From assembly GCA_964653045.1 (NCBI GenBank), contig CAZZBW010000001.1, forward strand, positions 617 through 64,616: a stretch of 64,000 bases of DNA. Reading direction: 5' to 3'. Position 1 is the stretch's first letter. Each line of letters starts with the position of its first letter. The position numbers and the translations under genes are program-made. Below are positions 18,674 through 42,969 of the stretch, piece by piece. Below the pieces are notes generated by a model, which had not been told where the DNA came from, did not search any database, and saw only the letters and a program-made list of their open reading frames with translations. The stretch is from an uncultured Pseudomonadales bacterium. Lineage in GTDB: Bacteria > Patescibacteriota > Microgenomatia > UBA1400 > PJMF01.

Positions 18674-21600
18674 TTAATTAACTATCCACCAATTAAATTG
18701 TAAGTCAGTATCCAGAGCTTGATCAACCGCCACACTGAAGTGGCCGGGGATGATCACTGTCTCTTCTGGCTTTTCCTCAGTTGCTTCAGTAATAATCTCT
18801 TGATCAGGCTGCTGCGAAGCGACGTACAGCACTTGATTCTGGGTGCTGCCTAGCGGAGTGATATAGACCAGGGATTTGTCAGTTATGGCTGAGGTCTCGA
18901 TCACCAGTAATGATTGGCCGGCGGGGAGGACGGCTTTGCCAGATGTCTTATCAGTGTTAATCACTGTATCTGCCGAGGCAGAGGCAGACTGGTCGCTCAA
19001 GTCTTCGCTGCCGATGCCGATCCCGCCGGCAAACTCAGCTCTGCCTTGAGCTGAGATGGTGGCCACGGGAGCGCCCGTGGCATCAACAATCTCGAAGCGG
19101 GAGTTTTTCAACTCGCCACTCTCACTGCTCGCACCAGCCACCTGCACTTGGAAGGGATTACCGAAATCAACTGGTTGGAGCAGGTTGCTCAAGAGTGAGC
19201 CTTCGGTGGTGATGTCACCAGCCACATGGAGGTTGCCGGTGATGTTGACCAGGCCGGTTTCGTCGAGGGTCATCAGCCCAGCCATGATCGAGAGCACGCC
19301 CTTGCCTGAGGGCTGAATCTGGAAGATAGCTAGCTCGCCCTCAGCTTCGGGATTGGCGGTAAAAGCCAAGTAGTTTTCAGTCAGCTGGACTTTATTACCA
19401 ATATTCAATTGTTGGCCAATGCCCAAGCTTTCAGCAATATAGCCAGTGCCATTAACGCGGAAGTACTCCTCGATGAAAAGGGCAGAGCCATTCAGGACTA
19501 CTTCTTCTTCAGTTAGGCTCAACTCTTCCAATGACTTATCAAAGCTGCTTAGCTCTTGGACAGTTGAGTCTAAGGAGGCGATCAACTGATTGATTTGATC
19601 TAGTTCTTGAGTAATTTCAGATTTTTCGTTGAAGAATAGCTCTGATAACGAAGGCTGAGTGAACGCCTCAGCGATATGCTGATCTAGATCGGCGATGTTT
19701 TCGACATATAGAGTACCAGAGACGGTGGCGTTTGCCAAAGAGGCGGTGAGCGCCGTGACCTCGTCGATCTTGGCCAGGTTTGACTCGATTACGTCAAACC
19801 TGGCCGCAGTTGCTTCAAGATCGGTAGCTTTGAGCTCGAGCTCAAAGCTCCCACTGTCCGCCACCAAGTTTTGTGTATCAACAGTGGTTGTCGTTACTGA
19901 GCTAGCGCTTAGTCCACCGCTGACAGTGACTTCTTGGGCGTTCAGCTCACCAAGCAGAGTGGGTTGAGTTGGGTCAAAGCTAACTGGGTCAGTCACACTC
20001 GGAGTAGGAGTGGGGCTAACCGCGCTTAATCTTTGGGCAATGCGCTCATCCAGGTATTGATCGATCGGGATTTGATTAATTGCTAATGTATTTACCTCAA
20101 GTTCATTGATTTCCGCGCGGCGATTGACAACCAAATCACTTAATTGCAGTATTTCTGGGATTGAAGCAATCAGCCCACTGGTATTTGCTAGAGCTTCATC
20201 AACTATCTCACGGACATAGATGGATAATGATTTTCCTCCGACTGATAAGGCATCAGCGGCAACATTTGTGGCTGAGATAGAATTAGCGACTAAGTTTGAG
20301 ATCAAAGCCTGGGTTGGAATACTAACTCGATTTATGACAGCTTCAGTGAAGCTGGCCTTGCCTGTTGCATCTACAGAAGCAAGGATTTTGCCCGTGTCAC
20401 CCTTGAACTCTAGACTGTTTGTCGTGATATTACGAGAAGCCAACTGATCAGTTATGATTTGATTGGACTCAACGATGGGTGAGACGAGCTTGTCTTCGAC
20501 AAAAATTTCTTTTGATAATACCAAACCAGCTGTGAGTTCGCCGATCATGCTTTGAGAGAAGGCTGATACCCGGTTGATTTTTTGACCACTTGGATCATAG
20601 ACGTCATATGAGCTATCAGCGGTGTGTGACAGGGATAATTGGCTGACACTTGTCAGCGAAGTGTCCGGATCAAACCAGCCAGGGTTAACAAAGGCGATTA
20701 CTTTTCCGATTAAGGTCCCGTCTGGAAGCCGATAGCAATCTTTGGTATATTCCAAAGGACTGCCGCCCTTGGGAAAATCTGGCCACAGTATGCCTTCGGC
20801 TGACGCCACGTACTGACAGCTTGCAGGATCGGGATTGAAGTTTTGTAATACATAACCAGCGCTGAAGCCAGCCTGTGAGCTGCGCATGCCAATACCAGGT
20901 AGATTTGAGCTAGTCACCCTATCCCCAGTTTTCAACGGACCGTTAATTGTGGATACCTTGACTGGTACTCTCCCGGCGAGAGCGACAGCCTTTTCCAAGT
21001 TTGGTGATTTTTTGTTTTCTCCCTCAGAATCATCCCATGGGATTCCTCCAATAAAACCAGGTTGTGTAGATACAATACCAACTAAGTTCTCGTCATATTG
21101 CCTCGAAGCCCTATCTAGTGTTTCAATCACACCGTCATTTGCGACTACTGATACCAGATCTCCTTTGGAGACACTTGTCTCGTTGACGTATGGGAATTTT
21201 TCGGCGTAGTCAAAAGAAGCACTTGACCAACCACCTCCTTCCGCTGTGTTGTACTGGGCGGTGGCAGAATCTGTCCAAAACCTGAACATTTTATCATCAT
21301 CAAGAGCGGCCATGTATATAAAACCTGCAGTTGAGGTGTTGGTTGCTCCCCCCAATATCCCTGCGTTATTCGCATTTATTTTGAGGTTCCCACCATAGAT
21401 CTCGAGTTTTTGACCAGCGCCCGTTGTTGTTCCGATGCCGAGATTACCGGAGGCAGTTAATATCATTTTCAGAGAGTTATTTGTGCCAAATCTAATATTT
21501 GAACCCGCCCTGTTCCAAATAAGTGCGTCATTTCCTTCACCGGTATAAGCGGAACCTCTTAGTCCAACAAGAAACAGGTCGCTTGACGCATTATTTCCAA

Positions 21601-24600
21601 ACTGCAAGAAGTTTGAAGCGCTGGTGCCGGTGCTTGTATTAGTTAAGTTTGCCGTGTAAGAGCTGCCATCTAGAGATGTAACAATATTCAACTTTGATGC
21701 TGGAGCAGTTGTCCCGATACCAACGTTGTCGCCGCTAATTGATAGCCTGGTGGCATCGGATCCTCCAGCAAAGGTATTAAAATCAAGTCTGCCTATTTCA
21801 CTGCCGGCAGTACTGCTAACAATATTCGCATTCATACTGGCATATTCTTGTTCAGCAAAGCCACTATCTAGTCCACCAAATGCAATTTCTCCCAAATTGG
21901 CTCCATTAGAATTGCTTGTGGTTTTTAGATAAAAAACACCAGCGGGAGAATTGCCACCCAACTGAAGATTAACGCCGCTAAGGACGCTGGACGTCTTTAT
22001 ACCAACATTTCCTATCACGATAGTATTTCTAAGAGCAGTATCTCCATCTACTTCCAAAGCGTCTTGCACATACAAATCTCCATCGCCTGTGGCACTGTTT
22101 ATTGTTCCTCCACTGCCAATCCGAACTTCATCTCCAGTTATTTGTAATTTGCCTAATGGGTTTGTTATCCCGATTCCGACGTTGCCTGTCCCGGCAGGCA
22201 TGAGGCTTAGGTGTTCGTTGGTGGCAGTAGTAATATCACTGGCGACGCCTGAAAAGTTGAGTGTTCCAGTCATGGTGTCGCCAGTGATATTCACCCAGTT
22301 GTCTGTAGAAGCAGGCATGTAGTAACTACCATGTTGATTATCTAGTAAATCTGCATTGAGATTTGTATTTAGAGTGGTAGAGGTAACAGCAAATGGAGAT
22401 GTACCTACAGCCAGTGAAGAAGTAATTTGACCTGAGTAGTTACCTAAGACACTATAGATATTGGCAAATCGAATGGCTGATGATCCCAGTTTTGAAGTGT
22501 TATTAGTTTGTCCACCAATATCTCCAGAGACCTGAAGCTTGAAGTTATTGGGATTGGTGGTTTCAATCCCGACGTTGCCGCCAAAATACGCAGCAACATT
22601 AGTATCTGCACCTGTTGGAGTTTCAACATACAAACCATAATTAGTTGAAGTACCGGTAAGGTTCATTGAGAGGGCGTTTTGGATATAGACACCATAGGCA
22701 TTAATAGTTCCACTAGTAACATTTCCACCTGCCTGGAATCTACCACCAATGGAGTGGGTAGTAGCGCCGTTGACTCCGGAGCTCCAACCAGAAAATTGTC
22801 CGCCGATAGTGTACTGTGTGCCTGTGGTTATCGCTGACATCTGGGAAGCCTGCAGAGCTCCTGCGGTAGTGGTACTGGCAGTGGTAGAAGTTGTTTGATA
22901 GTCGCTAATTAGACCAACACCAGCAGTTGCGGTACCAGTTAATCTGGTTTGAAAGATCGCCCCGAAACCGTACGCACCTGAAGCCAACGCGTCTTGAACT
23001 CGAAGTTTGGCATTTGGATTCGTCGTTCCAATACCGACGTTGCCGTTTCCTTTTATTGTAAGAGCATTTATAGGAGCGACTGCAGTTTTCGTTCGTATAA
23101 ATATATCTCCGTTATCATTGTTATATAAATTATCGATATATGAAGCTCCTGTACTATTATCATAAGTAAACTTTAATCCTTCGGTGGTAAGCGAGTCCCT
23201 ATCACTTAGAAATAGTACAGGATCAGTAGACTCGTTTGCAGATGCAATTTGAATATTACCATCGACATCGAGCTTTTGAAGTGGATTCGTTGTCCCGATA
23301 CCGACGTTACCGGCTGAGTCGATTCGCATTCTTTCAGTTCCTGTTGTAGTTGTTCCGTTAGCGGCGGTATAGAACAGCATATATGTAGTTGCATTCATCG
23401 CAGGTGTTCCTCCACCAAAGTGAAGAATGTTGTAGCCATTTTCACTTTGGGTTGTTGCTATTGCCACTGGTTCTTCTGCGTTAGTGTAATGATATCCTCC
23501 AAAACGACCCCATTTTTGTGTTGCGTTCGTTCTGGTTGAGGCTCCACTATCTGCTCCTAATATTAAAGCTAGTTGACCGTCGGCAATGTCTAACTTCCCG
23601 CCCGGACTTGTCGTTCCAATTCCTACCAGGTCACCAACTGTTGTTAGTCTCACAACGCTGCCATCATCTGTCCAACCACCGCCAATTGGACCGCCGGCAT
23701 TGATTGCTTCTCTGATACCTTGTTCTGTGACCAAAGTTGTGTCGTCGCCAGTAGCACCAACTGTAGTGGCAATGTAATTGACATTAGCACCTGTGGCCAA
23801 TTTAAGATCACCGTTGATGTGGAGTTTGGCAGAAGGAGTGGTGGTGCCGATGCCGACGTTGCCGTTGGCTGAAATTCTTAATCGCTCGTTGCCTGCAGCA
23901 CTTCCGGCAGTGAACATGGATATTACTCCCGCGGCGTTATTGGCTGTGAGAGACAAACCTCCTGAGTCATATCCAACTAAAGCTGTGGTGAGCGGAGCAT
24001 ATGCGCCTGAACCAGAGTAAGTTGAGCCGATGGAGTGAAGTGCAGCACCAACCGCTGCATCGGCATTACCACTATTTATTCTTAAAACACCATAGCCAGC
24101 GGTATTGGTATTGTCGATGAAAGCGCCGATACTACCGGTTGATGAACCACTGATAGCTAATTTATTGCCTGGAGAAGTGGTGCCAATACCGACGTTGCCA
24201 CCATTAGTTTGTAATGCTAATGCTTGATTACTCGCTTCCGTTGTCAAAATGGCATAGGAGTTATATACATTGAAATCCAGACCGGAACTTACTCCACCGA
24301 GACGCAAAGCGTTTCCGTTTGATCCATAAATGAATTGACCGTTCCCAACAACATCCAGTTTGTAACTCGGAGCAGTGGTGCCGATGCCGACATTGCTAGC
24401 AAGTGGATTTAAGATGAGAGGTGTTGATCCGTATGTTTGTATCCAACCGTAACTACCGGAAAGGTGTCCCATCGCAGTGCCGAACGCCCCTGAGGAAGGT
24501 GGTGTTCCTGAATCACTGATATCAGAATATCCACCAACAACACGTAATTTTGCTGATGGACTCGTCGTTCCAATACCCACGTTACCATTAGCAAAGATCG

Positions 24601-27600
24601 CGGCATAATTTGCAGTAGTGCCACCCGTTGCACTTGCATACAGCCCTACATTGGTTGAAGTTGTGCCGGCATGAGTATTGGTAATATATGCACCATAAGT
24701 TGTTTGAGCCGAAGTAACATTTGTGCCAGAAAGAGAAATATTCAAGCCTTTTTGAGTACTGCCAGTTGCTGCAGTAGAAGTTGTGACTAAGTCTAGTAAA
24801 GAACCAGAGCTTAGAGTGCTGGAACTGATTGCCAGCCCTTTGCCCGTAGTAAGTGAGTTGACATTGATTGCCATGGCATTACCAGTTGCGGTCGCATCAT
24901 CTAGCTGAAAGCCGTTGCCCGTATGAGCACCTGTGAAGTTAAATCTCACTCCACCATTACTGAAAGCTGAAGTAGAAGGAGAAGTAACATACAGAGCATT
25001 CCCAGTCAGTCCAGTTCCACCGGCTGTAATAGATAGGGCCGTGCCTGATGTCAGAGCAGTACCGGAGATACTGGATAGAGTTCCTGTTGTAGCTGAGTTA
25101 GCTGTCAGAGTCAGTAGCCCTGTCCCGGTATATATTCCGGTAGTAGCAATGGTGGCGCCGTTACCTGCGGTAGCGGCGCCCATATCTATATTAAGTAACT
25201 TTCCTCCCGTTGTCAGGCCTGCTCCAGAGCGAGCAAGAGAGAACATCGTTCCACTAGTTAGAGAAGTACTACTAGATGTTAGACCTGTACCAGTAGTCAG
25301 AGAGTTCCATGTCCAAGTAGAAGTATTAGCTCCCATTGTTAGTGACTGAGCACCCACTGGACTCTGAATCGCATCCCAGGTAGTACTACCAGTAGAGATA
25401 GTTGTCCAAGAAGTATTACCACTCCCATCTGTAGTCAGCATCTGATTAAGATCACCATCATTAGCAGGTAAAGTCAGAGTCCAATCACCTGCTGCTTCTG
25501 CAGGTTGGATTTGAGTGTAACCAGAAGTGTTGCCAGTTAGCCTGAGCGTTCCTCTACTAGTTCCTGCCGTACCTAGTTGAAGCATGGCACTGGGAGCAGT
25601 GGTACCGATGCCGACGTTGCCACTAACTATCATTGATCCTGCCCCAGGATCAGTGACTATATAGCCATTTCCCAAAGATAAGCCACCAGTTGCAGATAAT
25701 CGCATTTTTTCTGAACCAGCGGTTTGGAAGCCAATTAAGCTGTTTTGGTAACCATATATTGTTGAGGTGCCCCAAGACACACCATAGCCATCAGAAAGAC
25801 CGATATAGCCTGAATCGACTGTTAATTTATACGTTGGACTGGTTGTCCCAATTCCCACATTCCCCATAAAGTGACCTGTGCCAGTATTAGCATCTGCTCT
25901 GAACTTAGCACTGGCGGTGGAGTTACCACCGATATATAGATTAAGAGACTGATTAGTAGGAGAGAGTCCTTGGTTAGCTAGTGTCCAGTAGTTAGTACCC
26001 ACAGTAGTAGGATCTGTCCAAGTCGGAGCTGTATTAGCCCCAGCAGAAGTCAATAGATATCCAGACGTTCCTGCTGCTGCTCCTGGCATGATTGCACCAG
26101 AAAATTGGAGATTACCAGCAATATCTAACTTCTGAGTTGGATTAGTACTTCCGATACCAACGTTGCCGGCAGTGGGGGCCATGATCAGATTAGCTGCGGG
26201 AGTGATGGTGATATTACCAGTGCTGTTGGCAATGGTGGAGGCAGCTCCAGCGATGTGGAGTCTGGCAGTAGGGTTAGTTGTGCCAATACCCAAGTTGCCT
26301 GTGAAGTGGCCAGTGCCGGTATCAGCATCTGCTCTGAACTTGGCACTGGCTGTAGAGTTACCACCTATATATAGGTTAAGAGTTGTGTTGGTGGGGTATA
26401 AACCTTGGTTAGCTAGACTCCAGTAAGACCCACCTCCTGTAGCAGTCATCTCAATCCAGGTAGGATCAGCTCCAGCCCCATTGGTAGAGAGGACATAGCC
26501 AGCCGTACTAGGAGCGAGGGTAGACATGGCACCTGTGTTATTGAAGAAAGGTACACTTCCTCTAGCTACTGCACTCCAGTTCTGACCAGTACCACCATAG
26601 GTAGTGCTCAATGTTCCCCAGGTGGGAGCAGCAGCTCCACCAGAAATGAGAGCCATACCAGAAGTACCAGCTGTTAAGTGTCCATAAGCAGCAGTCCCAG
26701 TAGAGTAGATGATCTCACCAGCTCCACCAGCAGTCATGTTAGCTCCCAGGCCTCCACGAGTGACATTAACATACTGTTCTGCAGCGAGAGTGTTAGAGTC
26801 TGGTGACCAGTAAGCGTTGTAACCATTTGTCCCAGAACCATCAACCAATGAAGTTCCCCAGACCCTAGTATCAATGCTCCGAGTCTGGAGAGTACCTGAG
26901 CTATGAGTAACAACTGTATCAGTGCTACCGGCACCTAATGTACCAACTACCAAATTATCATCTGTCTTAAGAGTATCTGCGGCAGAGCGATAGAGATTAG
27001 TATCACTGCCAAAGCCAATTCCTCCCACAGCTGTGGTAGCTGCGGCTAGGTTGAGCTTGAAAGCTGGAGCGGTGGTACCGATACCGACGTTGCCGGAAAC
27101 TTGTTGGACAAAAAACGGATCAATTACTCCATAAGTATCAATATATACACCCTGTCCTGAAACAGCTCGAATCGAATGATTAATATCTAGCATATATAGC
27201 GTGTTATTAACAAGCGCGTTACCGACCACTTCTAATTTCTGCGTTGGAACCGTTGTCCCAATCCCTACATTCCCCATGAAGTGACCAGCACCAGTATTGG
27301 CATCTGCTCTGAACTTAGCACTGGCTGTGGAGTTACCACCAACATATAGATTGAGAGTAGTATTAGTTGGATGAAGTCCTTGGTTAGCTAGTGTCCAGTA
27401 GTTAGTACCAACAGTAGTAGGATCTGTCCAAGTCGGAGCTGTATTAGCTCCAGCTGAAGTCAATAGATATCCAGATGTTCCTGCTGCTGCTCCGGGCATG
27501 ATTGCACCAGAGAACTGGAGATTACCAACAATATCGAGTTTCTGAGCAGGAGCGGTACTACCGATACCGACGTTGCCAGAATCAACAATAAGACCATAGT

Positions 27601-30600
27601 TTTTAACTGCTCCAGTAGCAGAAAAGTATCCCGCTACGTTAGTTGATGTGTTTATACCACCACCTGTTGCTGTTGAATAAATTCCATATCTTGTTTGGCT
27701 GTCTATAGATCCAATTTGTGAAACACTGACTGCTTTTCCACCACTAACCATTGTATCTGCGTATATATCTAAATAAGCTCCCGGACTTGTCGTTCCCACT
27801 CCTACATTCCCCCCCATATCTACCACAAACGGTGTGGTATCAGCATAAGTACCATCATCATTCACCCGTAGAGCTAGAGCACCAGTTCCAGTCTGAGAAG
27901 TAGTAATATTGAGAGCAGTACCAGAACCAAGAGCATCAGTACCAAGTAGCCCTACCTTAAGCGCACTCCCATCTACATCAGCATCTGCATTGTTATACTC
28001 AAACTTAGCCAGATCACCTGTCCAAGTAGAAGCTGGAGCACCTGTAGCAGAGAGATTAAGTAATCCTCCGCTCGATAGAGCAGTAGAAGAAGTAGAGAGA
28101 GAGAACATCGTTCCACTAGTCAGAGAAGTACTACTAGATGTTAGACCTGTACCAGTAGTCAGAGAGTTCCATGTCCAAGTAGAAGTATTAGCTCCCATTG
28201 TTAGTGACTGAGCACCCACTGGACTCTGAATCGCATCCCAGGTAGTACTACCAGTAGAGATAGTTGTCCAAGAAGTATTACCACTCCCATCTGTAGTCAG
28301 CATCTGATTAAGATCACCATCATTAGCAGGTAAAGTCAGAGTCCAATCACCTGCTGCTTCTGCAGGTTGGATTTGAGTGTAACCAGAAGTGTTGCCAGTT
28401 AGCCTGAGCGTTCCTCTACTAGTTCCTGCCGTACCTAGTTGAAGCATGGCACCGGGAGCGGTGGTGCCGATCCCCAAATTACCTGCAAAGTAACCAGCCC
28501 CAGTGGCTCCATCAGCCATGAATTTGGCACTGGCAGTGGAGTTACCACCTACGTAGAGATTGAGAGTGGTGTTGGTGGCGTGTAGACCTTGGTTAGCTAG
28601 TGTCCAGTAGCTGGTGCCTGTGATAGTACTTGGATCCGTCCAAGTCGGGGTGGCGCCGGCACCAGCGGAAGTCAGAAGGTATCCGCTGGTGCCGGCAGAG
28701 CTACCTGGCATGATTGCTCCAGAGAATTGGACATTACCAACGACGTCTAGTTTCTGAGCTGGAGCGGTACTACCGACACCAACATTGCCGGTTGGAACCA
28801 AGAAATTACCGGTACCACTCAGGTTAGCAATGATGTCGCCAGCGCCGTATGTTTTGAGTGTCAGGTTATTACTTTCCCAGGCTTCGCCGACAGTGATGCT
28901 AAATGGCCCATAAGTCTGAATGTTTGAGCTAGTTTGGTTGGTGAAAATTAGGTCGTACGCCATCGACACATCACCTGCAGCGGTGAATTGATGGGGGACG
29001 GCACTGGTGATCTGATTTTGTGCGACAGAAAATACTTCGCTATCGTTGTTATATATTCCCAAAATTTTGCCAATGTTGCCGTATTGACCGACATTTAGCT
29101 TAAACAAGTCGCCGGTGGCATATACTTCGGTGGAACCAGATGGGTTCCAGTTGAGGTAAGCCAAGTTACCGGTCGTCAGAGCAGTTGAGGTTGATTCAAA
29201 ATACAGGCCGTTGCCGGTAGTCAAGCCGTCGAGGCTGACGTTGATACCGTTGCCTGAAGTGATCGAGTCGCCGGTTAGATTAAGCAAACTGGTGGTGTTG
29301 GTACTGACAATGTTGAGTTTGGCATTGGGCGCGGTGGAGCCAATACCGACATTGCCGGCGCTGGTGACATTAAACAAGGAGTTGACGTCGAAGAACGAAA
29401 GAGGTGAAGTGGAGCCAATACCCACATTACCATTATTTAGAATGGTGAAACGCTCGGTCAGACCAGCATCTCCGCCAGTTGAGGTGCGGATGCCGAAGGT
29501 ACCGCCATTGAGGATGTTGAGTTTTGTGGCTGGGTTGGCGCCTGTAGGGACTGCTAGCGCGAGGTTGCCAGAAATACTAGCGGTGGGTGTGCCAGAGTTA
29601 ACGTTGAGGAAGGCGAACTTGGCAGAAGAAGAAGCAGTTCCGCCGATCAGCATATCTAGAGAAGTGTTGTTTGGCGAAATTGTGCCGGCATTTACAGTCC
29701 AGTTGCTGGAGGGGCCACAGTTGCCTGAAGCATCACACACCATTTTGTCGCCCCAGTACAGGCTGCTTGAAGCCGCACCGGCAGCAGCGGAAGTGTTGAG
29801 GACATTGTTGGCGCCAGCCGCCCCCAGGCGGATGGCGCCACTCACGTCTAATTTTTGTGAAGGTGTGGTTGTCCCAATCCCTACATTTCCAGCAAAGTAT
29901 CCTTGTCCGGTTGCTCCATCAGCCATGAACTTGGCAGTGGCTGTGGCATCACCACCCACATATAGATTCAGCGATTGATTAGTAGCAGATAGTCCTTGGT
30001 TAGCTAATGTCCAGTAGTTAGTTCCAGTAATAGTACTTGGATCTGTCCAAGTAGGAGTACCTGATCCAGCGCTCGTTAACAGATAACCAGTGGTACCGAC
30101 ACTACTAAAGCCATATGCAGTCCCAGTAGAGTAAGCAATCGTGCCAGCTGAACCTACAGTAGTAGCATTAGTCCCACCATTTCCAACTCCTAATGTTCCT
30201 GTTACTTCAGCTGATGCTAGATTAATCGCTGCACTGATTAGATCCTTATTAGCATTAGTCTTAACTGGCAGAGAAGCAGTTAGACCTGTGACTCGCACAT
30301 CACCCGCAACTTCCAGCTTTTGAGCTGGGGTGATAGTTCCAATTCCGACATTACCAGAATTAGCTAGAAATATCTGGTTGCCCCCGTCTTGAGATTTGAG
30401 TAACAAACCAGAAACTGTATTTGCCGTACTAATTGTTGCTGGGTTTGTACCGTCATAAGTTGTAAACAATAGCGATCTATTTGCGGAATCTCTGATGCGT
30501 AAGGAACCACCTGTTCCAGCAAGTATGTCAACAAATGAGATGGGATTCGTAGTTCCAATTCCCACGTTTGTCCCGTTGTTATATAGAAGTGAATTAGCAA

Positions 30601-33600
30601 TCCAAGAAGTACCATCATGGCGGAGGGTCTGACCGCTGGTACCAGTGGGGAGCAGCACACTAGATAAATTTGTCCAGACTGGGGCAGTATTCGCTCCTTG
30701 GCTCTGTAAGTAATATCCACTGGTACCAGCTAAGCCGCCTGGCATCAGGGCATTACTAAACTGGAGATTGCCAGCAATGTCTAGTTTTTGAGCTGGAGCA
30801 GTGGTGCCGATGCCGACGTTACCGGTAGTATTTATAACGAATTTTTGGTTCGCCGCATTGTAATCGGTGCCGATTCCGTAACTATATTGGGCACCGCCAT
30901 AAAATACACCAGAAAACCATGATGCGCTTGCTCCTGTGTATTGAATTCCAGCAATGCGGTCTATTGCTCCTCTGGTTAACTCTAAAATGGCTGAATTTCC
31001 TTCAAATTTAGCCATTGTTGCCAAGGATGGACCATTGGTAACATTCAAAATTACGCTTGGACTCGTCGTCCCAATTCCCACATTCCCCATGAAGTGACCA
31101 GCACCAGTGTTTGCATCTGCTCTAAACTTAGCACTGGCGGTGGAGTTTCCACCGATATATAGATTAAGAGACTGATTAGTAGGAGAGAGTCCTTGGTTGG
31201 CTAGTGTCCAGTAGTTAGTACCAACAGTAGTAGGATCTGTCCAAGTAGGAGTACCTGATCCAGCACTGGTTAACAGGTATCCGGTAGTACCAACACTACT
31301 GAAGCCATATGCAGTCCCAGTAGAGTAAGCAATCGTGCCAGCTGAACCGACTGTCGTGGCTCCCGTACCACCATATCCAACTCCCAGAGTACCAGTCACT
31401 TCAGTCGAACCCAAGTTAATCGCTTCACTGATCAGATCTTTATTAGCATTAGTTTTAACAGGTAGAGAAGCAGTTAGACCTGTGACTCGCACATCACCCG
31501 CAACTTCCAGCTTTTGAGCTGGTGCAGTGGTACCGATACCGACGTTGCCGGTAGAACTAATTGCTAACCTTGTCGTAGTTGTCTGGTTAAAATATATTGG
31601 ACCATCGCTTCTTTGATTTGCGATAATTGCAGAAAGACCACTGGCCGCTCCCGTAATTTTAACCCCATTGGATGAATCAAGTGAAGCTCTAATAAGGATA
31701 GATGGGGCACTGCCGGCAACATCTAAATTTGAACCGGCGATCGTCGTCCCAATCCCGACGTTCCCCATAAAGTGACCTGCACCAGTGTTTGCATCTGCTC
31801 TAAACTTAGCACTTGCCGTGGAGTTACCACCGATATATAGATTTAGAGACTGATTAGTAGGAGAGAGTCCTTGGTTAGCTAATGTCCAGTAGTTAGTACC
31901 CACAGTAGTAGGATCTGTCCAAGTAGGAGCTGTATTAGTCCCAGCAGAAGTCAATAGATATCCAGATGTTCCTGCTGCTGCTCCTGGCATGATTGCACCA
32001 GAGAATTGGAGGTTACCGGCTATGTCTAGTTTCTGAGCTGGTACTGTTGTCCCAATCCCTACGTTTGTCCCATCGTTATGTAGAAGTGAGTTAGCAATCC
32101 AAGATGTGCCGTCGTGTCTGAGGGTCTGGCCGCTGGTACCAGTGGGGAGTAACACACTAGACAAATTTGTCCAGACTGGGGCAACATTGGCTCCTTGGCT
32201 CTGTAAGTAATATCCACTGGTACCAGCTAAGCCGCCTGGCATCAGGGCACCACTGAACTGCAGGTTACCAGCTATATCTAGTTTCTGAGTGGGAGCAGTA
32301 CTACCAATGCCGACATTGCCAAGTGGATTAACAACAAATAATGATTGCGATGTTGAATCTTGAATCTGAAAGATATTGGCTGTCTGAGAAGCTGCTCCCT
32401 TAAGAATAAGGGCGTTATCTGTGGCGGTGTTGGACTGTAAGGTAAAATCATCGCTTGTCCAAATACCATTGAATTTTATTAAACCGTATCTTGAAGCAGA
32501 TGCTTGGGGGTATTGGTTAACGGTGCCGCTGGTAGTGTTGTTGGTCAAATACGAGTAATAGAGGTTAGCAACTCCGCCAGTACTGATGTCGTAGTCTGAA
32601 CCCCCAAAATAACTATTTTTTGCATTTACGGTATAGGCACCAGGAACATATAGTCCATACCTGGTGCCAGTAAAGTATCCAACGCTTGACACAGTAGTTC
32701 TCTCAATTGAAATTGTTTGCCAATTGTTGTATATGCCAACGGCGTCTTTATAGTCACCTCTTACCGATACGTTGCTGTCAAATATTGAAAGGGATGCGTT
32801 CGAGCTAAATATTCCATATAAGCTTCCGGAGCCAGTTGTTGATGAAACCGAAATAGACACATCACGGATAATGTTGCCGGATGTCCCTGATCCGGCGCCA
32901 ACTGTTATTGCTGCTACTGATCCGATATCTTTAATGTTTGTTGTATTACTGATTTGAATATCTTCTATCGACGATCCGCTACCAGACAAGTTCACTATAT
33001 AATTTATGCCTGTTCCTGCCGTTCCATCCCCATTTATTACAACATTTCCCGCACGTGATTTAAGTGTCGTATATGCAGGAACCAGTACGTTTTCAGTATA
33101 AGTACCAGGTAACACTTCAACTAAAAAGCGATTGTCTGGTGCTGGTGATTGTGTAGAAACATAAGTCATTGCGGCAGAAATGGTTGTGAAATCACCTTCG
33201 CCGTCAGGATCGACCACGACAGCGTGATCATAGGGACTCAGCATGCCGTCTTGAAATCTCACCTGACCTCCAGTTACGTCTAGCTTGTATTGAGGAGCAG
33301 TCGTCCCAATTCCTACATTCCCCATAAAGTGACCAGCACCAGTATTAGCATCCGCTCTGAATTTAGCTGAGGCTGTGGAGTTACCACCAACATACAGATT
33401 AAGAGATTGATTAGTAGGAGATAGTCCTTGATTAGCCAGTGTCCAGTAGTTTGTACCTACAGTAGTAGGATCTGTCCAAGTAGGAGTTCCTGTTCCAGCA
33501 CTGGTAAGTAAGTAACCTGTAGTACCAACACTACTGAATCCATATGCAGTCCCAGTAGAGTAAGCAACACTACCAGCTGAGCCTACCGTAGTAGCATTAG

Positions 33601-36256
33601 TACCACCATTACCTACACCCAGAGTACCTGTCACTTCAGCACTAGCTAGATTAATAGCTCCACTAATTAGATCTTTACTGGTATTAGTCTTAACCGGTAG
33701 AGAAGCAGTCAATCCTGTAATCCGGACATCGCCAACTACCTCTAGCTTCTGAGCTGGGGAAGCGGTACCGATACCAACATTACCCGTAGTTGGTAAGATT
33801 ACCAGATCTTCTGCAGGAGTAATGGTGATATCGCCATCATCGTTGGCAATTGTTGAGGCTGCGCCAGCGATGTGTAACCTGGCGGCAGGATTGTAAGTGC
33901 CAATACCAACATTACCCATAAAGTGACCAGTACCAGTGTCTGCGTCAGCCCGAAATTTAGCCGTAGCGGTGGAGTCGCCACCGACATAGAGGTTGAGAGT
34001 GGTATTAAGTGCGTGTAATCCCTGATTAGCCAGTGTCCAGTATGTCTCACCTGTGGCCGTCATCTCGATCCAGGTGGGATCGGCTCCAGCGCCGTTGGTA
34101 GAGAGGACATAACCAGCAGTACTTGGGGCAAGGGTGGTCATGGTGCCAGTGTTGTTAAAGAAGGGAATGCTGCCTCTGACCACACTACTCCAGTTCTGAC
34201 CAGTCCCGCCGTTACTGACACCTAGTGCGCCAGTTACTTCTGAACTGGCGAGATTAATTGCAGCACTAATGAGATCTTTATTGGCGTTAGTCTTGACTGG
34301 CAGAGATGCAGTCAGGCCTGTGATCCGGACATCTCCTACTACCTCAAGCTTCTGAGCAGGTGCGGTGGTGCCGATACCGACATTTGTCCCATCGTTAAAA
34401 AGAAGTGAGTTGGCTGTCCAAGATGTGCCGTCGTGTCTGAGAGTCTGACCGCTGATCCCAGTGGGCAGAAGAGTGCTGCTCATATCTGTCCAAACTGGCG
34501 CCGTATTAGCTCCCTGACTCTGTAAGTAATACCCACTGGTACCAGATTGGCCGCCTGGCATCAGGGCGCCGGAGAATCGGAGATTACCTGAGACGTCGAG
34601 CTTTTCTACAGGATTCGAGGTACCGATTCCCAGATTACCAGCCGAATTAATTACGCCAAGAGTAGTATCTGTACTCGTTTTCCATTGGGCAATATCGGCG
34701 GTGGCGGATGGGCCGGCTTTGAGGATGAGGGCGGTGCCACCCGCGTAGGTAGCGGAGAGGGTGGCACCGGGAGCGCTCAGATAGCCTTCCACATCTAAAT
34801 CAGAATTGATTTCAACTTTGCCAATTCCATCAGGGTCAAGGACAATGTCACCGTTCGAGCCGGCCGGAGTTTGGAGAGTCAGGGTCGCAGCTTCAATGGT
34901 GAATGATGTGCCAGTAGATTTGAGTATACTGTTGGACTCAGCAATCAGGATTTGACCGGCGTTGTCCATTACAAGAACAGTATTTTTGGTAGCACCACCA
35001 GTGGGAGCTGGAGGGTAACCTTGGAGCGTTTCGGAGTTGAGGGCATACGCCACTGATTTAATCGCTTGTCGCGGCGTCAGCACCTCTGCGTCGACCTCAA
35101 CCTCCAGCCAGACGTTGGAGTTTTCGGTAAATACTTCATTACCGATCTCGGCGCCGCACTCGTCGCCCAAGCCTATGGAAAAAATACCGTCTTGATCTGG
35201 ATCGACGCTACACGTCCCGCCTGAGTCCCAGAGCAAACTTCCGCCTGTACCTGGGCCGGTGTCGTAGAGATAGAACCGGACTGGAGTGGGGTCAATAATT
35301 GGGGTTTTGGCAATATCGGTTAATCTTCCTTGAAACGAGAGCGATCGATAAGGTCGGGTGAGCTCGGTGGGATAAGCAAGAGAAGGTGTGGCCGAGTCAA
35401 GCCACTGTTGATAGCCAAAAAGGCCTAGAGCCGAGAACAATAAAGCAACTATGGCCAATGTGGTGTAATTGAGCGAAGGTGCGCGGCTGGCGGAATGAAG
35501 TCGAGAGAGGGCGGAATTGAGTTGATACTGCCAGTCCTGATTGGAGCGAGTACTGACAGAACTGGTAAAGTTGTGATCTAAGGTGAGTAAAGGCAGCTGC
35601 CAGAGTTGTTTTTTGTTGGCAGAAGGTGTTTGTTTGGGTGTTTTGGGTAACTTTTTGGTCTTAAGTCCAGAAGCCATTCGGGTTAAGTGGGGCTCCGCCT
35701 GCGCATTAAGAGCAACAATTTCTGAGAAGCCATGTTCGACAAAACCCTCTTTTTGTAGCCATAGTGCAAATTGGGTAATACTCGATAATTTCCTTTTGAC
35801 CGTGCTGATTGATTGACCTTGGAAAAGAGAATTCTCGAGGAAGCTCAATAATTTGGGTTTTGTCAGAATTTGGGTTAGAGAAGATTGCTGGATGAATGCG
35901 ATGAATTGGCCGATATCAGAGCGATAACCCTTAATCGTTTGCGGTGAGCAGTGGGCACGATGGAGTGCTAAAAGATATGTTTGGAGCGCGACTCCAGCCT
36001 GGGAAATGAAATAGAGTCTTGCAAACTGATGGAGCAAGGGTTGGGGCTGACGTTTCGGATGAAGAAAGCGAGAAAGTAAAGCACGGGCGTGTCCAAACAG
36101 ATTTTGAGCCGCTTGGTGATGATGAAGTTCGACCAGCTCATCGATGGCAGCACGAATATCTTGCTCTTTGGCCTCAATTGAGCGACCAAAAAGACCTACA
36201 AGGTCAATGAGGGCAATGAAAGTGCGCTTTTCGGTTGGCATGAGCAGCTTTGTCAA
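18674..36256 (-). CDS. Giant (5860 aa) surface fibril protein: N-terminal integrase-type core-binding domain, one TM helix, then a long tail-fibre-like repeat array
   Basis: Continuous ORF. Residues about 90-180 match the Phage_integrase_N / XerCD core-binding fold. TM LAIVALLFSALGLFGY. At least 30 copies of the GNVGIGTT.P..KL.V.G motif. At least 9 copies of YWTLANQGL...NLY.GG.STASAKF.AD. A tail-fibre-like LDNQHGSYY module. C-terminal coiled-coil region. Confidence 0.8.
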   Translation of the reverse strand: MTKLLMPTEKRTFIALIDLVGLFGRSIEAKEQDIRAAIDELVELHHHQAAQNLFGHARALLSRFLHPKRQPQPLLHQFARLYFISQAGVALQTYLLALHRAHCSPQTIKGYRSDIGQFIAFIQQSSLTQILTKPKLLSFLENSLFQGQSISTVKRKLSSITQFALWLQKEGFVEHGFSEIVALNAQAEPHLTRMASGLKTKKLPKTPKQTPSANKKQLWQLPLLTLDHNFTSSVSTRSNQDWQYQLNSALSRLHSASRAPSLNYTTLAIVALLFSALGLFGYQQWLDSATPSLAYPTELTRPYRSLSFQGRLTDIAKTPIIDPTPVRFYLYDTGPGTGGSLLWDSGGTCSVDPDQDGIFSIGLGDECGAEIGNEVFTENSNVWLEVEVDAEVLTPRQAIKSVAYALNSETLQGYPPAPTGGATKNTVLVMDNAGQILIAESNSILKSTGTSFTIEAATLTLQTPAGSNGDIVLDPDGIGKVEINSDLDVEGYLSAPGATLSATYAGGTALILKAGPSATADIAQWKTSTDTTLGVINSAGNLGIGTSNPVEKLDVSGNLRFSGALMPGGQSGTSGYYLQSQGANTAPVWTDMSSTLLPTGISGQTLRHDGTSWTANSLLFNDGTNVGIGTTAPAQKLEVVGDVRITGLTASLPVKTNANKDLISAAINLASSEVTGALGVSNGGTGQNWSSVVRGSIPFFNNTGTMTTLAPSTAGYVLSTNGAGADPTWIEMTATGETYWTLANQGLHALNTTLNLYVGGDSTATAKFRADADTGTGHFMGNVGIGTYNPAARLHIAGAASTIANDDGDITITPAEDLVILPTTGNVGIGTASPAQKLEVVGDVRITGLTASLPVKTNTSKDLISGAINLASAEVTGTLGVGNGGTNATTVGSAGSVAYSTGTAYGFSSVGTTGYLLTSAGTGTPTWTDPTTVGTNYWTLANQGLSPTNQSLNLYVGGNSTASAKFRADANTGAGHFMGNVGIGTTAPQYKLDVTGGQVRFQDGMLSPYDHAVVVDPDGEGDFTTISAAMTYVSTQSPAPDNRFLVEVLPGTYTENVLVPAYTTLKSRAGNVVINGDGTAGTGINYIVNLSGSGSSIEDIQISNTTNIKDIGSVAAITVGAGSGTSGNIIRDVSISVSSTTGSGSLYGIFSSNASLSIFDSNVSVRGDYKDAVGIYNNWQTISIERTTVSSVGYFTGTRYGLYVPGAYTVNAKNSYFGGSDYDISTGGVANLYYSYLTNNTTSGTVNQYPQASASRYGLIKFNGIWTSDDFTLQSNTATDNALILKGAASQTANIFQIQDSTSQSLFVVNPLGNVGIGSTAPTQKLDIAGNLQFSGALMPGGLAGTSGYYLQSQGANVAPVWTNLSSVLLPTGTSGQTLRHDGTSWIANSLLHNDGTNVGIGTTVPAQKLDIAGNLQFSGAIMPGAAAGTSGYLLTSAGTNTAPTWTDPTTVGTNYWTLANQGLSPTNQSLNLYIGGNSTASAKFRADANTGAGHFMGNVGIGTTIAGSNLDVAGSAPSILIRASLDSSNGVKITGAASGLSAIIANQRSDGPIYFNQTTTTRLAISSTGNVGIGTTAPAQKLEVAGDVRVTGLTASLPVKTNANKDLISEAINLGSTEVTGTLGVGYGGTGATTVGSAGTIAYSTGTAYGFSSVGTTGYLLTSAGSGTPTWTDPTTVGTNYWTLANQGLSPTNQSLNLYIGGNSTASAKFRADANTGAGHFMGNVGIGTTSPSVILNVTNGPSLATMAKFEGNSAILELTRGAIDRIAGIQYTGASASWFSGVFYGGAQYSYGIGTDYNAANQKFVINTTGNVGIGTTAPAQKLDIAGNLQFSNALMPGGLAGTSGYYLQSQGANTAPVWTNLSSVLLPTGTSGQTLRHDGTSWIANSLLYNNGTNVGIGTTNPISFVDILAGTGGSLRIRDSANRSLLFTTYDGTNPATISTANTVSGLLLKSQDGGNQIFLANSGNVGIGTITPAQKLEVAGDVRVTGLTASLPVKTNANKDLISAAINLASAEVTGTLGVGNGGTNATTVGSAGTIAYSTGTAYGFSSVGTTGYLLTSAGSGTPTWTDPSTITGTNYWTLANQGLSATNQSLNLYVGGDATATAKFMADGATGQGYFAGNVGIGTTTPSQKLDVSGAIRLGAAGANNVLNTSAAAGAASSSLYWGDKMVCDASGNCGPSSNWTVNAGTISPNNTSLDMLIGGTASSSAKFAFLNVNSGTPTASISGNLALAVPTGANPATKLNILNGGTFGIRTSTGGDAGLTERFTILNNGNVGIGSTSPLSFFDVNSLFNVTSAGNVGIGSTAPNAKLNIVSTNTTSLLNLTGDSITSGNGINVSLDGLTTGNGLYFESTSTALTTGNLAYLNWNPSGSTEVYATGDLFKLNVGQYGNIGKILGIYNNDSEVFSVAQNQITSAVPHQFTAAGDVSMAYDLIFTNQTSSNIQTYGPFSITVGEAWESNNLTLKTYGAGDIIANLSGTGNFLVPTGNVGVGSTAPAQKLDVVGNVQFSGAIMPGSSAGTSGYLLTSAGAGATPTWTDPSTITGTSYWTLANQGLHATNTTLNLYVGGNSTASAKFMADGATGAGYFAGNLGIGTTAPGAMLQLGTAGTSRGTLRLTGNTSGYTQIQPAEAAGDWTLTLPANDGDLNQMLTTDGSGNTSWTTISTGSTTWDAIQSPVGAQSLTMGANTSTWTWNSLTTGTGLTSSSTSLTSGTMFSLSTSSTALSSGGLLNLSATGAPASTWTGDLAKFEYNNADADVDGSALKVGLLGTDALGSGTALNITTSQTGTGALALRVNDDGTYADTTPFVVDMGGNVGVGTTSPGAYLDIYADTMVSGGKAVSVSQIGSIDSQTRYGIYSTATGGGINTSTNVAGYFSATGAVKNYGLIVDSGNVGIGSTAPAQKLDIVGNLQFSGAIMPGAAAGTSGYLLTSAGANTAPTWTDPTTVGTNYWTLANQGLHPTNTTLNLYVGGNSTASAKFRADANTGAGHFMGNVGIGTTVPTQKLEVVGNALVNNTLYMLDINHSIRAVSGQGVYIDTYGVIDPFFVQQVSGNVGIGTTAPAFKLNLAAATTAVGGIGFGSDTNLYRSAADTLKTDDNLVVGTLGAGSTDTVVTHSSGTLQTRSIDTRVWGTSLVDGSGTNGYNAYWSPDSNTLAAEQYVNVTRGGLGANMTAGGAGEIIYSTGTAAYGHLTAGTSGMALISGGAAAPTWGTLSTTYGGTGQNWSAVARGSVPFFNNTGAMSTLAPSTAGYVLSTNGAGADPTWIEMTATGGGSYWSLANQGLYPTNTTLNLYIGGNSTASAKFRADADTGTGHFTGNLGIGTTNPTARLHIAGAASTIANSTGNITITPAANLIMAPTAGNVGIGSTNPTQKLDIAGNLQFSGAIMPGAAAGTSGYLLTSAGANTAPTWTDPTTVGTNYWTLANQGLSPTNQSLNLYIGGNSTASAKFRADANTGTGHFMGNVGIGTTSPTYKLTVDSGYIGLSDGYGVSWGTSTIYGYQNSLIGFQTAGSEKMRLSATGGLSLGNGYIVTDPGAGSMIVSGNVGIGTTAPSAMLQLGTAGTSRGTLRLTGNTSGYTQIQPAEAAGDWTLTLPANDGDLNQMLTTDGSGNTSWTTISTGSTTWDAIQSPVGAQSLTMGANTSTWTWNSLTTGTGLTSSSTSLTSGTMFSLARSGAGLTTGGKLLNIDMGAATAGNGATIATTGIYTGTGLLTLTANSATTGTLSSISGTALTSGTALSITAGGTGLTGNALYVTSPSTSAFSNGGVRFNFTGAHTGNGFQLDDATATGNAMAINVNSLTTGKGLAISSSTLSSGSLLDLVTTSTAATGSTQKGLNISLSGTNVTSAQTTYGAYITNTHAGTTSTNVGLYASATGGTTANYAAIFANGNVGIGTTSPSAKLRVVGGYSDISDSGTPPSSGAFGTAMGHLSGSYGWIQTYGSTPLILNPLASNVGIGTTAPSYKLDVVGNGQFIYGSNGNALRLGGVSSGLDFNVYNSYAILTTEASNQALALQTNGGNVGIGTTSPGNKLAISGSSTGSIGAFIDNTNTAGYGVLRINSGNADAAVGAALHSIGSTYSGSGAYAPLTTALVGYDSGGLSLTANNAAGVISMFTAGSAAGNERLRISANGNVGIGTTTPSAKLHINGDLKLATGANVNYIATTVGATGDDTTLVTEQGIREAINAGGPIGGGWTDDGSVVRLTTVGDLVGIGTTSPGGKLDIADGQLALILGADSGASTRTNATQKWGRFGGYHYTNAEEPVAIATTQSENGYNILHFGGGTPAMNATTYMLFYTAANGTTTTGTERMRIDSAGNVGIGTTNPLQKLDVDGNIQIASANESTDPVLFLSDRDSLTTEGLKFTYDNSTGASYIDNLYNNDNGDIFIRTKTAVAPINALTIKGNGNVGIGTTNPNAKLRVQDALASGAYGFGAIFQTRLTGTATAGVGLISDYQTTSTTASTTTAGALQASQMSAITTGTQYTIGGQFSGWSSGVNGATTHSIGGRFQAGGNVTSGTINAYGVYIQNALSMNLTGTSTNYGLYVETPTGADTNVAAYFGGNVGIETTNPNNFKLQVSGDIGGQTNNTSKLGSSAIRFANIYSVLGNYSGQITSSLAVGTSPFAVTSTTLNTNLNADLLDNQHGSYYMPASTDNWVNITGDTMTGTLNFSGVASDITTATNEHLSLMPAGTGNVGIGITNPLGKLQITGDEVRIGSGGTINSATGDGDLYVQDALEVDGDTALRNTIVIGNVGIKTSSVLSGVNLQLGGNSPAGVFYLKTTSNSNGANLGEIAFGGLDSGFAEQEYASMNANIVSSTAGSEIGRLDFNTFAGGSDATRLSISGDNVGIGTTAPASKLNIVTSLDGSSYTANLTNTSTGTSASNFLQFGNNASSDLFLVGLRGSAYTGEGNDALIWNRAGSNIRFGTNNSLKMILTASGNLGIGTTTGAGQKLEIYGGNLKINANNAGILGGATNTSTAGFIYMAALDDDKMFRFWTDSATAQYNTAEGGGWSSASFDYAEKFPYVNETSVSKGDLVSVVANDGVIETLDRASRQYDENLVGIVSTQPGFIGGIPWDDSEGENKKSPNLEKAVALAGRVPVKVSTINGPLKTGDRVTSSNLPGIGMRSSQAGFSAGYVLQNFNPDPASCQYVASAEGILWPDFPKGGSPLEYTKDCYRLPDGTLIGKVIAFVNPGWFDPDTSLTSVSQLSLSHTADSSYDVYDPSGQKINRVSAFSQSMIGELTAGLVLSKEIFVEDKLVSPIVESNQIITDQLASRNITTNSLEFKGDTGKILASVDATGKASFTEAVINRVSIPTQALISNLVANSISATNVAADALSVGGKSLSIYVREIVDEALANTSGLIASIPEILQLSDLVVNRRAEINELEVNTLAINQIPIDQYLDERIAQRLSAVSPTPTPSVTDPVSFDPTQPTLLGELNAQEVTVSGGLSASSVTTTTVDTQNLVADSGSFELELKATDLEATAARFDVIESNLAKIDEVTALTASLANATVSGTLYVENIADLDQHIAEAFTQPSLSELFFNEKSEITQELDQINQLIASLDSTVQELSSFDKSLEELSLTEEEVVLNGSALFIEEYFRVNGTGYIAESLGIGQQLNIGNKVQLTENYLAFTANPEAEGELAIFQIQPSGKGVLSIMAGLMTLDETGLVNITGNLHVAGDITTEGSLLSNLLQPVDFGNPFQVQVAGASSESGELKNSRFEIVDATGAPVATISAQGRAEFAGGIGIGSEDLSDQSASASADTVINTDKTSGKAVLPAGQSLLVIETSAITDKSLVYITPLGSTQNQVLYVASQQPDQEIITEATEEKPEETVIIPGHFSVAVDQALDTDLQFNWWIVN
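25241..25590. repeat. About 350-bp intragenic repeat, copy A (near-identical to 28114-28463)
   Basis: Direct comparison of the two stretches shows 1 mismatch over about 350 bp. Both lie inside the 5860-aa ORF and encode the same about 116-aa segment (...GAMLQLGTAGTSRGTLRLTGNTSGYTQIQPAEAAGDWTLTLPANDGDLNQML...). Confidence 0.85.
28114..28463. repeat. About 350-bp intragenic repeat, copy B
   Basis: See copy A. The copies lie about 2.9 kb apart, in direct orientation and in frame. Confidence 0.85.
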
Positions 36257-36739
36257 AATACGTTTGTACCAGATTGATTACACCCAAAACAAATACTTAA
36301 CCAGTGTAGAGAAATCGAGAAGTAAGTCAAGATCGAGTAATCCAGGCTAAAATTAATAATAGTAATAAAGCTCACAAAATTAAACAAAAAGCAGAATATA
36401 ACTGCAATATTAACGTATTTTCACAATAAGCCACTGTGATCAGAACGGATCAATGGAAGTAACATGTTTGGATAAAATTCGATAAGTGGAGATAAAATGG
36501 ATAAGAACTAGACTTGCATCCACATCGTGAATATGTTCTACTTATGTGATCTAAGTGAACGTAAATAAAAAAGAATAAGTATAAGTACTGTGATTACTAG
36601 AGTAAAAAGGATTAATGATACACATATCAAACAGAAAAACTGCTAATTATGATTGTTTGGGTGAGCTAAGTGTGGAAAACCTCTTAACTGATCAATAAAT
36701 ATACTTTAATATTAACATGATAACTGCAAAGATAACTTT

Positions 36740-37486: not shown

Positions 37487-37790
37487 CGTTGACCATAAAG
37501 TGGGTTGTCAATTACCGCACTATAATTTCATACCGAAGAGGGCAGAAAAATGATTTTTCTTAGCTATAATACGATTGGGTGCTTCGGGTTTGAAAATATT
37601 GATCCTTGGACTAGTATCATTGTCTAACATTGTAATATTAATAACATATATATCACTAATGCGGCAATAACTTACTAGAGTAGCGGTAATAAAGCGGCTA
37701 AACCGCGTTAATACATATTTTTATCTCTTCTGGCAAGGTGTTTGAGTGAAATCTTAAACTCTACATTAATTACCCAAATAAAGGCCATTG

Positions 37791-40401: not shown

Positions 40402-40424
40402 ATTTGGCTTAAAGTTAATATTTA

Positions 40425-42966: not shown

Positions 42967-42969
42967 TTA

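Follow-up and report, generated by a model that had tools for sequence, protein, structure and literature searches.

What does a bacterium make from a single reading frame of 5860 codons, and what do the near-identical repeats inside it record? The question is raised by a stretch of 64,000 nucleotides (nt) of Patescibacteria DNA (contig CAZZBW010000001.1; hereafter the window), whose minus strand carries such an open reading frame (ORF), uninterrupted, at 18674..36256. A first-pass annotation had described a tail-fibre-like array at 21400-34650 and had seen in its repeats the mark of ongoing length or antigenic variation or, alternatively, of a recent burst of duplication or an assembly artefact. 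The reading that we favour, with a probability of about 65%, is that the region encodes the shaft of a giant cell-surface fibre of Patescibacteria (Microgenomates/Paceibacteria type) and that its repeats mostly derive from old duplications of modules.

The ORF begins with a TTG codon at position 36256. Its true start may lie up to ~70 codons downstream; homologues align only from query residue about 28-74 onward. The first recognizable domain is an integrase N-terminal SAM-like domain at residues 93-171 (35743..35980; this and all following features of the gene are on the minus strand), detected with Pfam PF02899 above its cut-off (2.5e-07, 31.3 bits). PF02899 and PF13495 are the only models that match the N-terminal region (residues 92-171). 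A single transmembrane helix is predicted at residues ~262-284 (35405..35473), preceded by a K/R-rich stretch. It corresponds to the sole 19-residue window with a Kyte-Doolittle hydropathy above 1.6 in the 5860 residues. From these features we infer that the N-terminus is inside the cell and the remainder of the protein outside. Just outside the membrane comes a conserved stem domain (residues 286-450; 34907..35401) with the signature LSFQGRLTD, which is predicted to fold as an immunoglobulin-like beta-sandwich.

The fibre shaft spans residues 540-5056 (21089..34639). It is composed of 38 segments, each opened by a motif of the GNVGIGTxxPxxKL type. The strict pattern G[NDS][VLI]G[IV][GEK][TSI] occurs 32 times in the protein, and the 38 segments were counted with a slightly broader pattern. 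The extent of the array and the dozens of GNVGIGTT-type units announced by the first-pass annotation are thereby confirmed. Recurrent unit types are confined to residues 540-3890. One of them, YW[ST]LANQGL, for which at least nine copies had been claimed, is found exactly nine times, at residues 739, 937, 1456, 1682, 2081, 2550, 2953, 3278 and 3423. Together with other DNA-level repeats, these nine units form a zone at 25842..34084 with 72-94% identity. The shaft also contains a segment of 334 residues devoid of internal motifs (979-1312; 32321..33322). Its start resembles pectinesterase, a right-handed beta-helix (Pfam PF01095, 9.1e-07, 28.3 bits for a cut-off of 27, over profile positions 2-65 only). 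The segment may be a glycan-binding or glycan-degrading insert; inspection by eye revealed no DFIFG-type catalytic motif in it.

Several searches relate the shaft to tail fibres. PHROG tail-fibre families match it (phrog_9942 at 1.6e-31, and phrog_18345). A phmmer search against PDB sequences retrieved two proteins only, both of them Bdellovibrio fibres: Bd2133 (8OND, E=5e-9, three stretches) and 8OML. The alignments span GNVGIG-TAP--KLEVAG and the next strand. In the MAT fibres of Bdellovibrio, the capping loop of an intertwined trimeric beta-helix carries the motif V-G-G/N-pi-x-x-P-x-x-x-L (Caulton et al. 2024, PMC10769870). These fibres are related to phage T5 pb1 and K1F endosialidase (PMC10769870). 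The 38 motif-opened segments and the matches with Bd2133 and 8OML place this capping-loop motif in the giant protein and, with the phi29-gp12-type chaperone domain described below, bear out the tail-fibre-like character first noted for the array. A HMMER search with one shaft unit against 1.84 billion representatives gave 8040 proteins at E<=1e-3, 93 of them at E<=1e-30. Among the best 150 unit matches, 35 have at least 3000 residues, 34 contain the stem, 26 the SAM-like domain and 12 the C-terminal chaperone-like domain. The YW[ST]L spelling is rare: it is found in 7 of the 150 best unit matches and in none of the main ORFs of 80 fetched loci.

The shaft is followed by a Peptidase-G2-like intramolecular chaperone/autoproteolysis domain (residues 5005-5214; 20615..21244), assigned from Pfam PF11962, a PDB profile match and the fold of an AlphaFold2 model. 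The PF11962 match itself (E=0.001, 19.0 bits) does not reach the curated cut-off of 25. This cut-off is passed by several homologues, P0171, P0178, P0180 and P0195 in precomputed annotations and P0145 with 29.4 bits, and the domain is conserved in more than 80 homologues. When the C-terminal 1008 residues were used as sole query, no PDB sequence was matched; the match came only from the family profile (A2, 30 sequences of the domain, in which D12 and E15 are invariant). With this profile, the PDB search retrieved the phi29 pre-neck appendage gp12 (3GQH, 2.8e-4), 6QZ9, 3SUC and the chaperone domain of a tailspike. With gp12, the aligned stretch starts at the very first residue of the released fragment, where D-F-A-E-Y-F in gp12 faces D-Y-A-E-K-F here. 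The gp12 residues that correspond to D12 and E15 are catalytic in gp12. The AlphaFold2 model is confident, with a predicted local distance difference test (pLDDT) score of 86.7, and its best Foldseek match in the PDB is the pre-mature form of gp12 (3SUC, probability 1.00, TM-score 0.46). The domain thus has both the D-x-A-E at the fragment start and the gp12 fold, and we predict that it is a gp12-type chaperone that cleaves itself before D5016 (SF|DYAEKF). Beyond this domain, the protein continues with a conserved tail made of its last ~650 residues. The G2-like domain likewise lies ~500-700 residues from the end in 3 of 24 complete family ORFs of other genomes. The tail includes a C-terminal block, from ~residue 5377 (18677..20130), that is kept in a related lineage (~89% identity in nucleotides, 94% in amino acids). 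MAT fibres end in an S74 chaperone/protease domain (SDxxxK) or in an alternative adhesive tip; a search of fragments of the giant protein for S74 (PF13884) gave no match even at E<=10. Such S74 ends do occur in other members that share the N-terminal family (P0175, P0227). The use of G2 or S74 ends within the Patescibacteria family parallels the split between S74 and non-S74 MAT fibres.

MAT fibres (Bd2133, Bd3182 and others; PMC10769870) are the closest known counterparts. Like the giant gene, they are chromosomal and tail-fibre-like and belong to a bacterium living on bacteria; their display on the surface would also be shared. Common to both are the capping-loop motif (here VGIGTxxPxxKL), a C-terminal chaperone or alternative end, and a mosaic organization with 'tip swapping'. 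A possible further parallel is a beta-rich domain, placed directly after the export signal in MAT fibres and predicted directly after the anchor here. In MAT fibres, the N-terminal conserved beta-rich domain has about 130 residues and directly follows the signal peptide. In contrast, the giant fibre is 5-6 times longer (5860 versus ~1000 residues), has a cytoplasmic SAM-like domain and a transmembrane anchor instead of a signal peptide, carries a G2-type chaperone followed by a 650-residue tail instead of an S74-type end, contains extensive internal repeats at the DNA level, and belongs to a monoderm-type Patescibacterium whereas the host of MAT fibres is a Gram-negative predator. Phage S74 tail fibres and tailspikes (T5 pb1, K1F endosialidase) have in common with it the motif family, a C-terminal chaperone, a trimeric beta-helix (predicted here) and modular exchange; unlike them, the giant gene has no detectable S74 domain, lies outside any phage and would anchor its fibre in the cell membrane. 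In phi29 gp12 (3GQH, 3SUC), a beta-helical trimeric fibre or spike is likewise followed by an autochaperone opening with D-[FY]-A-E, but the sequences are only marginally similar, with a score that misses the Pfam cut-off, a far longer region follows the conserved beta core in the giant protein, and cleavage here is predicted. Other giant proteins, namely membrane proteins of Vampirococcus (PMC8080830), proteins of Omnitrophota (bioRxiv 10.1101/2023.11.21.568195) and GhpA of Aureispira (PDB 9FLP), are also multi-thousand-residue, repeat-rich and associated with the membrane or surface. They are likewise proposed to act in cell-cell contact, and their genes also fragment assemblies. They differ in their domains (WD40/PKD/integrin, or dockerin/TPR/SecA-type), and the match with GhpA is very weak (E=0.31). 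Tail-fibre-like fibres of the MAT kind were already known; new here is a giant, membrane-anchored, G2-capped version in Patescibacteria. A literature search for this architecture in Patescibacteria found nothing specific.

We then come to the age of the repeats. One module of 355 nt is present in two copies only. Copy A (25236..25590; residues 3556-3674) is at the start of segment 3546-3890, and copy B (28098..28452; residues 2602-2720) has a C-terminal flank that is kept in the related lineage. The offset is 2862 nt. The copies differ at a single position, 25259, by a synonymous change, and share a perfect stretch of 331 nt; with BLAST, the similarity reaches over 377 nt, at 98.7% identity. 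The one-mismatch pair of about 350 bp given in the first-pass annotation therefore exists, but its second coordinate was 11 nt off: in the register 25241-25590 versus 28114-28463, 274 of 350 bases mismatch. The further copies placed near 25846, 27260, 31060, 31740 and 33310 belong to the YWTLANQGL-containing unit, not to this module, and are 86-94% identical among themselves rather than 90-95%. Nor are several units nearly undiverged, as had been stated: the 355-nt pair is the sole near-identical one in the gene. The gene contains 50 exact direct repeats of at least 20 nt, all in frame, the longest being of 331, 60, 59 and 50 nt. No repeat is detectable at the DNA level (E<=1e-10) outside 25236-34658; between 21.1 and 25.2 kb, in the distal shaft, only the short motif recurs, and it does so at the protein level. 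The repetition is beyond chance.

Nei-Gojobori distances were calculated on in-frame ungapped pairs. The 355-nt pair shows one synonymous and no nonsynonymous difference, with a synonymous divergence (dS) of 0.011. All other repeat pairs are 72-94% identical; their proportion of synonymous differences (pS) is 0.26-0.70, dS is ~0.3 to >2 or saturated, and the ratio of nonsynonymous to synonymous divergence (dN/dS) is ~0-0.2. Because synonymous sites are that diverged and dN/dS is well below 1, most of the array consists of old duplicates under purifying selection, neither produced by a recent burst nor homogenised. Outside the 355-nt pair, these values argue against the burst of duplication considered at first. 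The same pattern is visible in the 49-residue YW...GIGT cores, which are 98-100% identical as protein and yet 84-93% identical as DNA. The unit at residue 1682 has its YWT core on an upstream half of the 'TGLTASLPVKTN' type. This core is 93% identical to cores carried by halves of the 'QFSGA' type and only 86% and 73% identical to cores of its own unit type, which indicates, from sequence comparison, exchange of sub-units between unit types. As for the 355-nt tract, it starts at a unit boundary, GN[LV]GIGTTAP, and on its C-terminal side drops abruptly into weakly and gappily similar flanks. Such an outline would fit either a patch of gene conversion between two old paralogues or a module copied from one to the other.

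The related lineage gives direct evidence that blocks are exchanged or lost at this locus. Among the C-terminal homologues the best is P0166, whose gene lies on two JGI contigs (L083 and L084), each from a different sample. Their DNA is ~89-90% identical to the window, and the last ~485 residues are 94% identical. The contigs match the window at 28216-27794 (90%), which corresponds to the C-terminal end of the 355-nt module and the flank of copy B. They then pass directly into different units and rejoin the window only at 20130. As a result, the shaft between 27794-27811 and 20130 has ~460 residues in these contigs, versus ~2560 here (~2100 less). One breakpoint is exactly on a GNVGVG motif (window 27811-27794). 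The exchange or loss observed separates lineages that differ by ~10% and is not variation inside one population. In L083, what lies upstream of the fragment of the module is a 'SGYLLTSAGANTAPTWT' piece, which stands in for the first two thirds of the module. Alignment of L083 1-90 with window 26010-26056 and 28217-28452 assigns this piece to another unit type, joined at an analogous x-L-x-T-x-G-x-G-x-x-x-W motif. GNVGIG may therefore be one of two kinds of recombination joint.

Could the gene then be a contingency locus, whose in-frame repeats are now used for RecA-dependent deletion, duplication and conversion, giving length or antigenic variation within the population? The 331-nt perfect match is a plausible substrate for deletion or duplication, since a crossover between the two 355-nt copies would remove exactly 954 codons in frame. 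The other 49 exact repeats of 20-60 nt are also all in frame, the related lineage has a much shorter shaft, and short-read contigs of the family very often end inside the gene. Against this, only one pair is recent, all others having dS >= 0.3 without homogenisation; the window contains no invertase, and no silent cassettes are found in it outside the giant gene. Pfam scans of ORFs of at least 150 residues gave no reverse transcriptase that would point to a diversity-generating retroelement as the source of variation (smaller ORFs and template/variable repeats were not searched). Two independent population assemblies agree perfectly with the window where they overlap it. Finally, the related lineage is ~10% diverged, which makes its rearrangement evolutionary rather than population-level. 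We regard such a locus as unlikely. What stands of the variation proposed by the first-pass annotation is an in-frame exchange of modules between lineages, documented by the short mosaic relative; the sequences do not show that variation is ongoing.

A second possibility is a structural component of the envelope, such as an S-layer-like coat, a spacer or a sheath, in which the repeats merely set length and no host is bound. The absence of an identified receptor-binding tip domain agrees with this idea, as does the pattern of conservation, which is strongest in the stem next to the membrane and in the C-terminal block. In Vampirococcus, a predator of the candidate phyla radiation, giant membrane proteins are moreover linked to a fibrous cell surface (PMC8080830). 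However, among proteins of solved structure, those closest to it are fibres for adhesion and fibres with which phages bind their receptors. The shaft is the part that varies and is exchanged between lineages, as expected of a recognition device, and the operon partner is rich in lectin-type domains. On balance a purely structural role appears rather doubtful.

The 355-nt pair might also be an assembly artefact of a genome with one copy, for example if the assembler had placed a repeat twice or merged two strains into a chimera. Logan contigs (SRR8925802, SRR8925769) are 100% identical to the window at 32220-39226, 35318-38339, 42564-49128 and 43506-47545. The first of these (L085) takes in the first 4 kb of the giant gene, several of its diverged repeats among them, and ends within the 60-nt exact repeat at 32190-32249. 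This independent assembly covers neither copy, and no homologue of the repeat zone at ~100% identity was found. Genes of this fibre family also routinely break short-read assemblies. Scans of JGI metagenome contigs with a degenerate copy-A junction pattern and a within-module pattern gave no match; this is uninformative because the second pattern occurs in the JGI contigs L083/L084 and was nevertheless missed, so that the collection scanned lacks these samples. On the other side, both copies are in frame, start at the GN[LV]GIGTTAP boundary and have unique flanks on either side, those downstream being paralogues of weak homology. A single synonymous base separates the two copies, copy B is joined to the same downstream flank in the related lineage from two other samples, and assemblers tend to collapse repeats, not to create them. 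Because of these unique in-frame flanks, the single difference and the copy-B junction kept in L083, the sequences argue that both copies are real, and we hold an artefact to be improbable.

That the gene is a phage or prophage tail-fibre gene, as its PHROG tail-fibre matches, integrase-type N-terminal domain and phi29-like G2-type chaperone might suggest, can practically be dismissed, since it has an N-terminal transmembrane anchor, lacks a recombinase catalytic domain, shows minimal similarity to 50,697 phage records (four weak tblastn matches in three distinct phages, at 31-33% identity, one being a Thermus phage distal tail fibre) and lies in 64 kb without phage structural, packaging or lysis genes. 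Housekeeping genes flank it on both sides, and a prophage identity was rejected on this gene context. The window encodes an ATP synthase alpha/beta-type protein, an M23 peptidase, Obg, leucyl- and arginyl-tRNA synthetases (LeuRS, ArgRS), an M16 peptidase, nucleoside diphosphate kinase (NDK), three pseudopilins, ComEA, ComEC, three tRNAs and several large surface proteins. With Obg, LeuRS, ArgRS, ComEA/ComEC and pilins as neighbours, the giant gene is chromosomal, on a Patescibacteria-type chromosome, and not a phage gene.

With a giant fibre as the preferred reading, the following scheme can be proposed. The product would be a single-pass fibre, N-terminus in, anchored in the membrane and ~0.2 um long, a length scaled from Bd2133 (370 residues for about 150 A; PMC10769870). 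The chain would trimerise starting at the C-terminal chaperone to give a homotrimeric beta-helical fibre, and the chaperone would then cut itself off before D5016. Together with a lectin-rich protein of 3870 residues encoded downstream, the fibre would attach to host or prey cells at their surface. The history of the shaft can be read from its repeats: three or four unit types were duplicated in frame long ago and have been kept by purifying selection, some sub-units were exchanged later, and one gene conversion or duplication of 355 nt is recent. The related lineage shows, by comparison, that recombination at the conserved motif and in the conserved C-terminal block swaps or removes whole blocks of the shaft.

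The downstream gene (7060..18672, minus strand) starts 1 nt past the stop of the giant gene, and this junction is kept with the same one-base spacing in L083 and L084. It is probably the operon partner of the giant gene. The 3870-residue protein contains nine Laminin_G_3 (ConA-like lectin) domains, an N-terminal hydrophobic segment, and weak matches to sialidase-N and toxin receptor-binding models. The gene has an internal DNA repeat of its own (13688-14084 versus 15911-16307, 89% identity).

Several points weigh against the scheme. It relies on inference for trimerisation, autocleavage, display on the surface and binding, and the structural models are of the monomer only. The G2 score stays at 19 against 25 bits, the corresponding Foldseek match has an E-value of 2.7e-3 with a TM-score of 0.46, and the giant protein has no S74 domain. 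The scheme gives no role to a SAM-like domain of recombinase type in the cytoplasm. L083 and L084 are metagenome assemblies of ~4 kb with their 5' end inside the repeat zone, so that they show only part of the gene, and the 355-nt copies are without read-level or independent-assembly support.

How widely is the architecture distributed? With the N-terminal 450 residues as query, 45 homologues were found, many of them partial and named 'site-specific integrase'. Apart from a few, those named by source come from the Patescibacteria lineages Pacebacteria, Woesebacteria, Shapirobacteria, Roizmanbacteria, Collierbacteria and Levybacteria. When genomes representative of species were scanned, the N-terminal module was located at 359 loci, and many of the contigs stop 1-4 kb into the gene. 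In proteins P0001-P0045 and loci L003-L082, the label 'site-specific integrase, partial' predominates, though a transmembrane helix and a fibre follow the SAM-like domain. In the giant protein, no catalytic domain of a tyrosine recombinase (R-H-R-Y) was found, XerC/XerD models reaching 31-33 bits for cut-offs of ~330. An identity as tyrosine recombinase or site-specific integrase was rejected, the SAM-like domain being alone and the remainder being the transmembrane helix and fibre. Some members, such as P0252, P0256 and P0278, have two SAM-like domains in tandem. Dozens of GTDB records that contain a family gene (L005, L007, L008 and others) are titled 'uncultured Pseudomonadales bacterium' or 'Gammaproteobacteria'; further titles are Limisphaerales, Methylococcaceae, Vitreimonas and Nevskiaceae. 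Mislabelling or contaminated bins are the likely cause.

A more far-reaching idea, which we put forward as speculative and would not ourselves expect to hold in full, is that of a widespread, undescribed family of giant host-recognition fibres of Patescibacteria, anchored in the membrane with a cytoplasmic SAM-like domain, the shafts of which are rebuilt by in-frame recombination at the motif. If this were true, the motif would serve at once as structural cap and as recombination joint, and populations would be able to adjust the length and specificity of their fibres to their hosts. Attachment might also be coupled, through the cytoplasmic domain, to some process inside the cell, for instance DNA handling.

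In a few cultured Saccharibacteria, pili and adhesins are essential (PMC10633639). Outside these, host recognition and attachment by the ultrasmall, host-dependent Patescibacteria are largely unknown, and the giant gene provides a concrete candidate. The fibre family is present in hundreds of genomes, where it is routinely truncated in assemblies and often mislabelled 'site-specific integrase'. The in-frame design of the repeats and the mosaic relative suggest a route for shifts in host range. The predicted cleavage site and the unit boundaries offer handles for expression, structural work and long-read studies of populations.

Other genes of the window also encode surface proteins or have unusual features. 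On the minus strand, the six upstream genes at 37791-44471 have either no domain match or weak ones (Big_13, Big_6, SdrD_B-like, WxL-interacting-protein-like, Fn3-like) and are probably another surface-protein cluster. A third very large gene (55530-62279, plus strand) encodes 2249 residues with seven Ig_Rha78A_N-type domains. It contains a tandem DNA repeat of ~675-1040 nt at 59481-61901, with 71-81% identity. Within the giant gene, a 255-residue ORF runs antisense at 29211-29978 (plus strand). Rather than being a gene of its own, it most likely reflects the richness of the coding strand in Gly, Thr and Ala codons. At 5537-6990 on the plus strand, next to where the operon of the two giant genes ends on the other strand, are three successive small genes that encode type IV pilin-like motifs for N-terminal methylation. 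Finally, ComEC is apparently split into two ORFs that overlap by 4 nt, with the Competence domain at 47906-49231 and the metallo-beta-lactamase domain at 49228-50103 (both plus strand), just downstream of ComEA (47161-47796).

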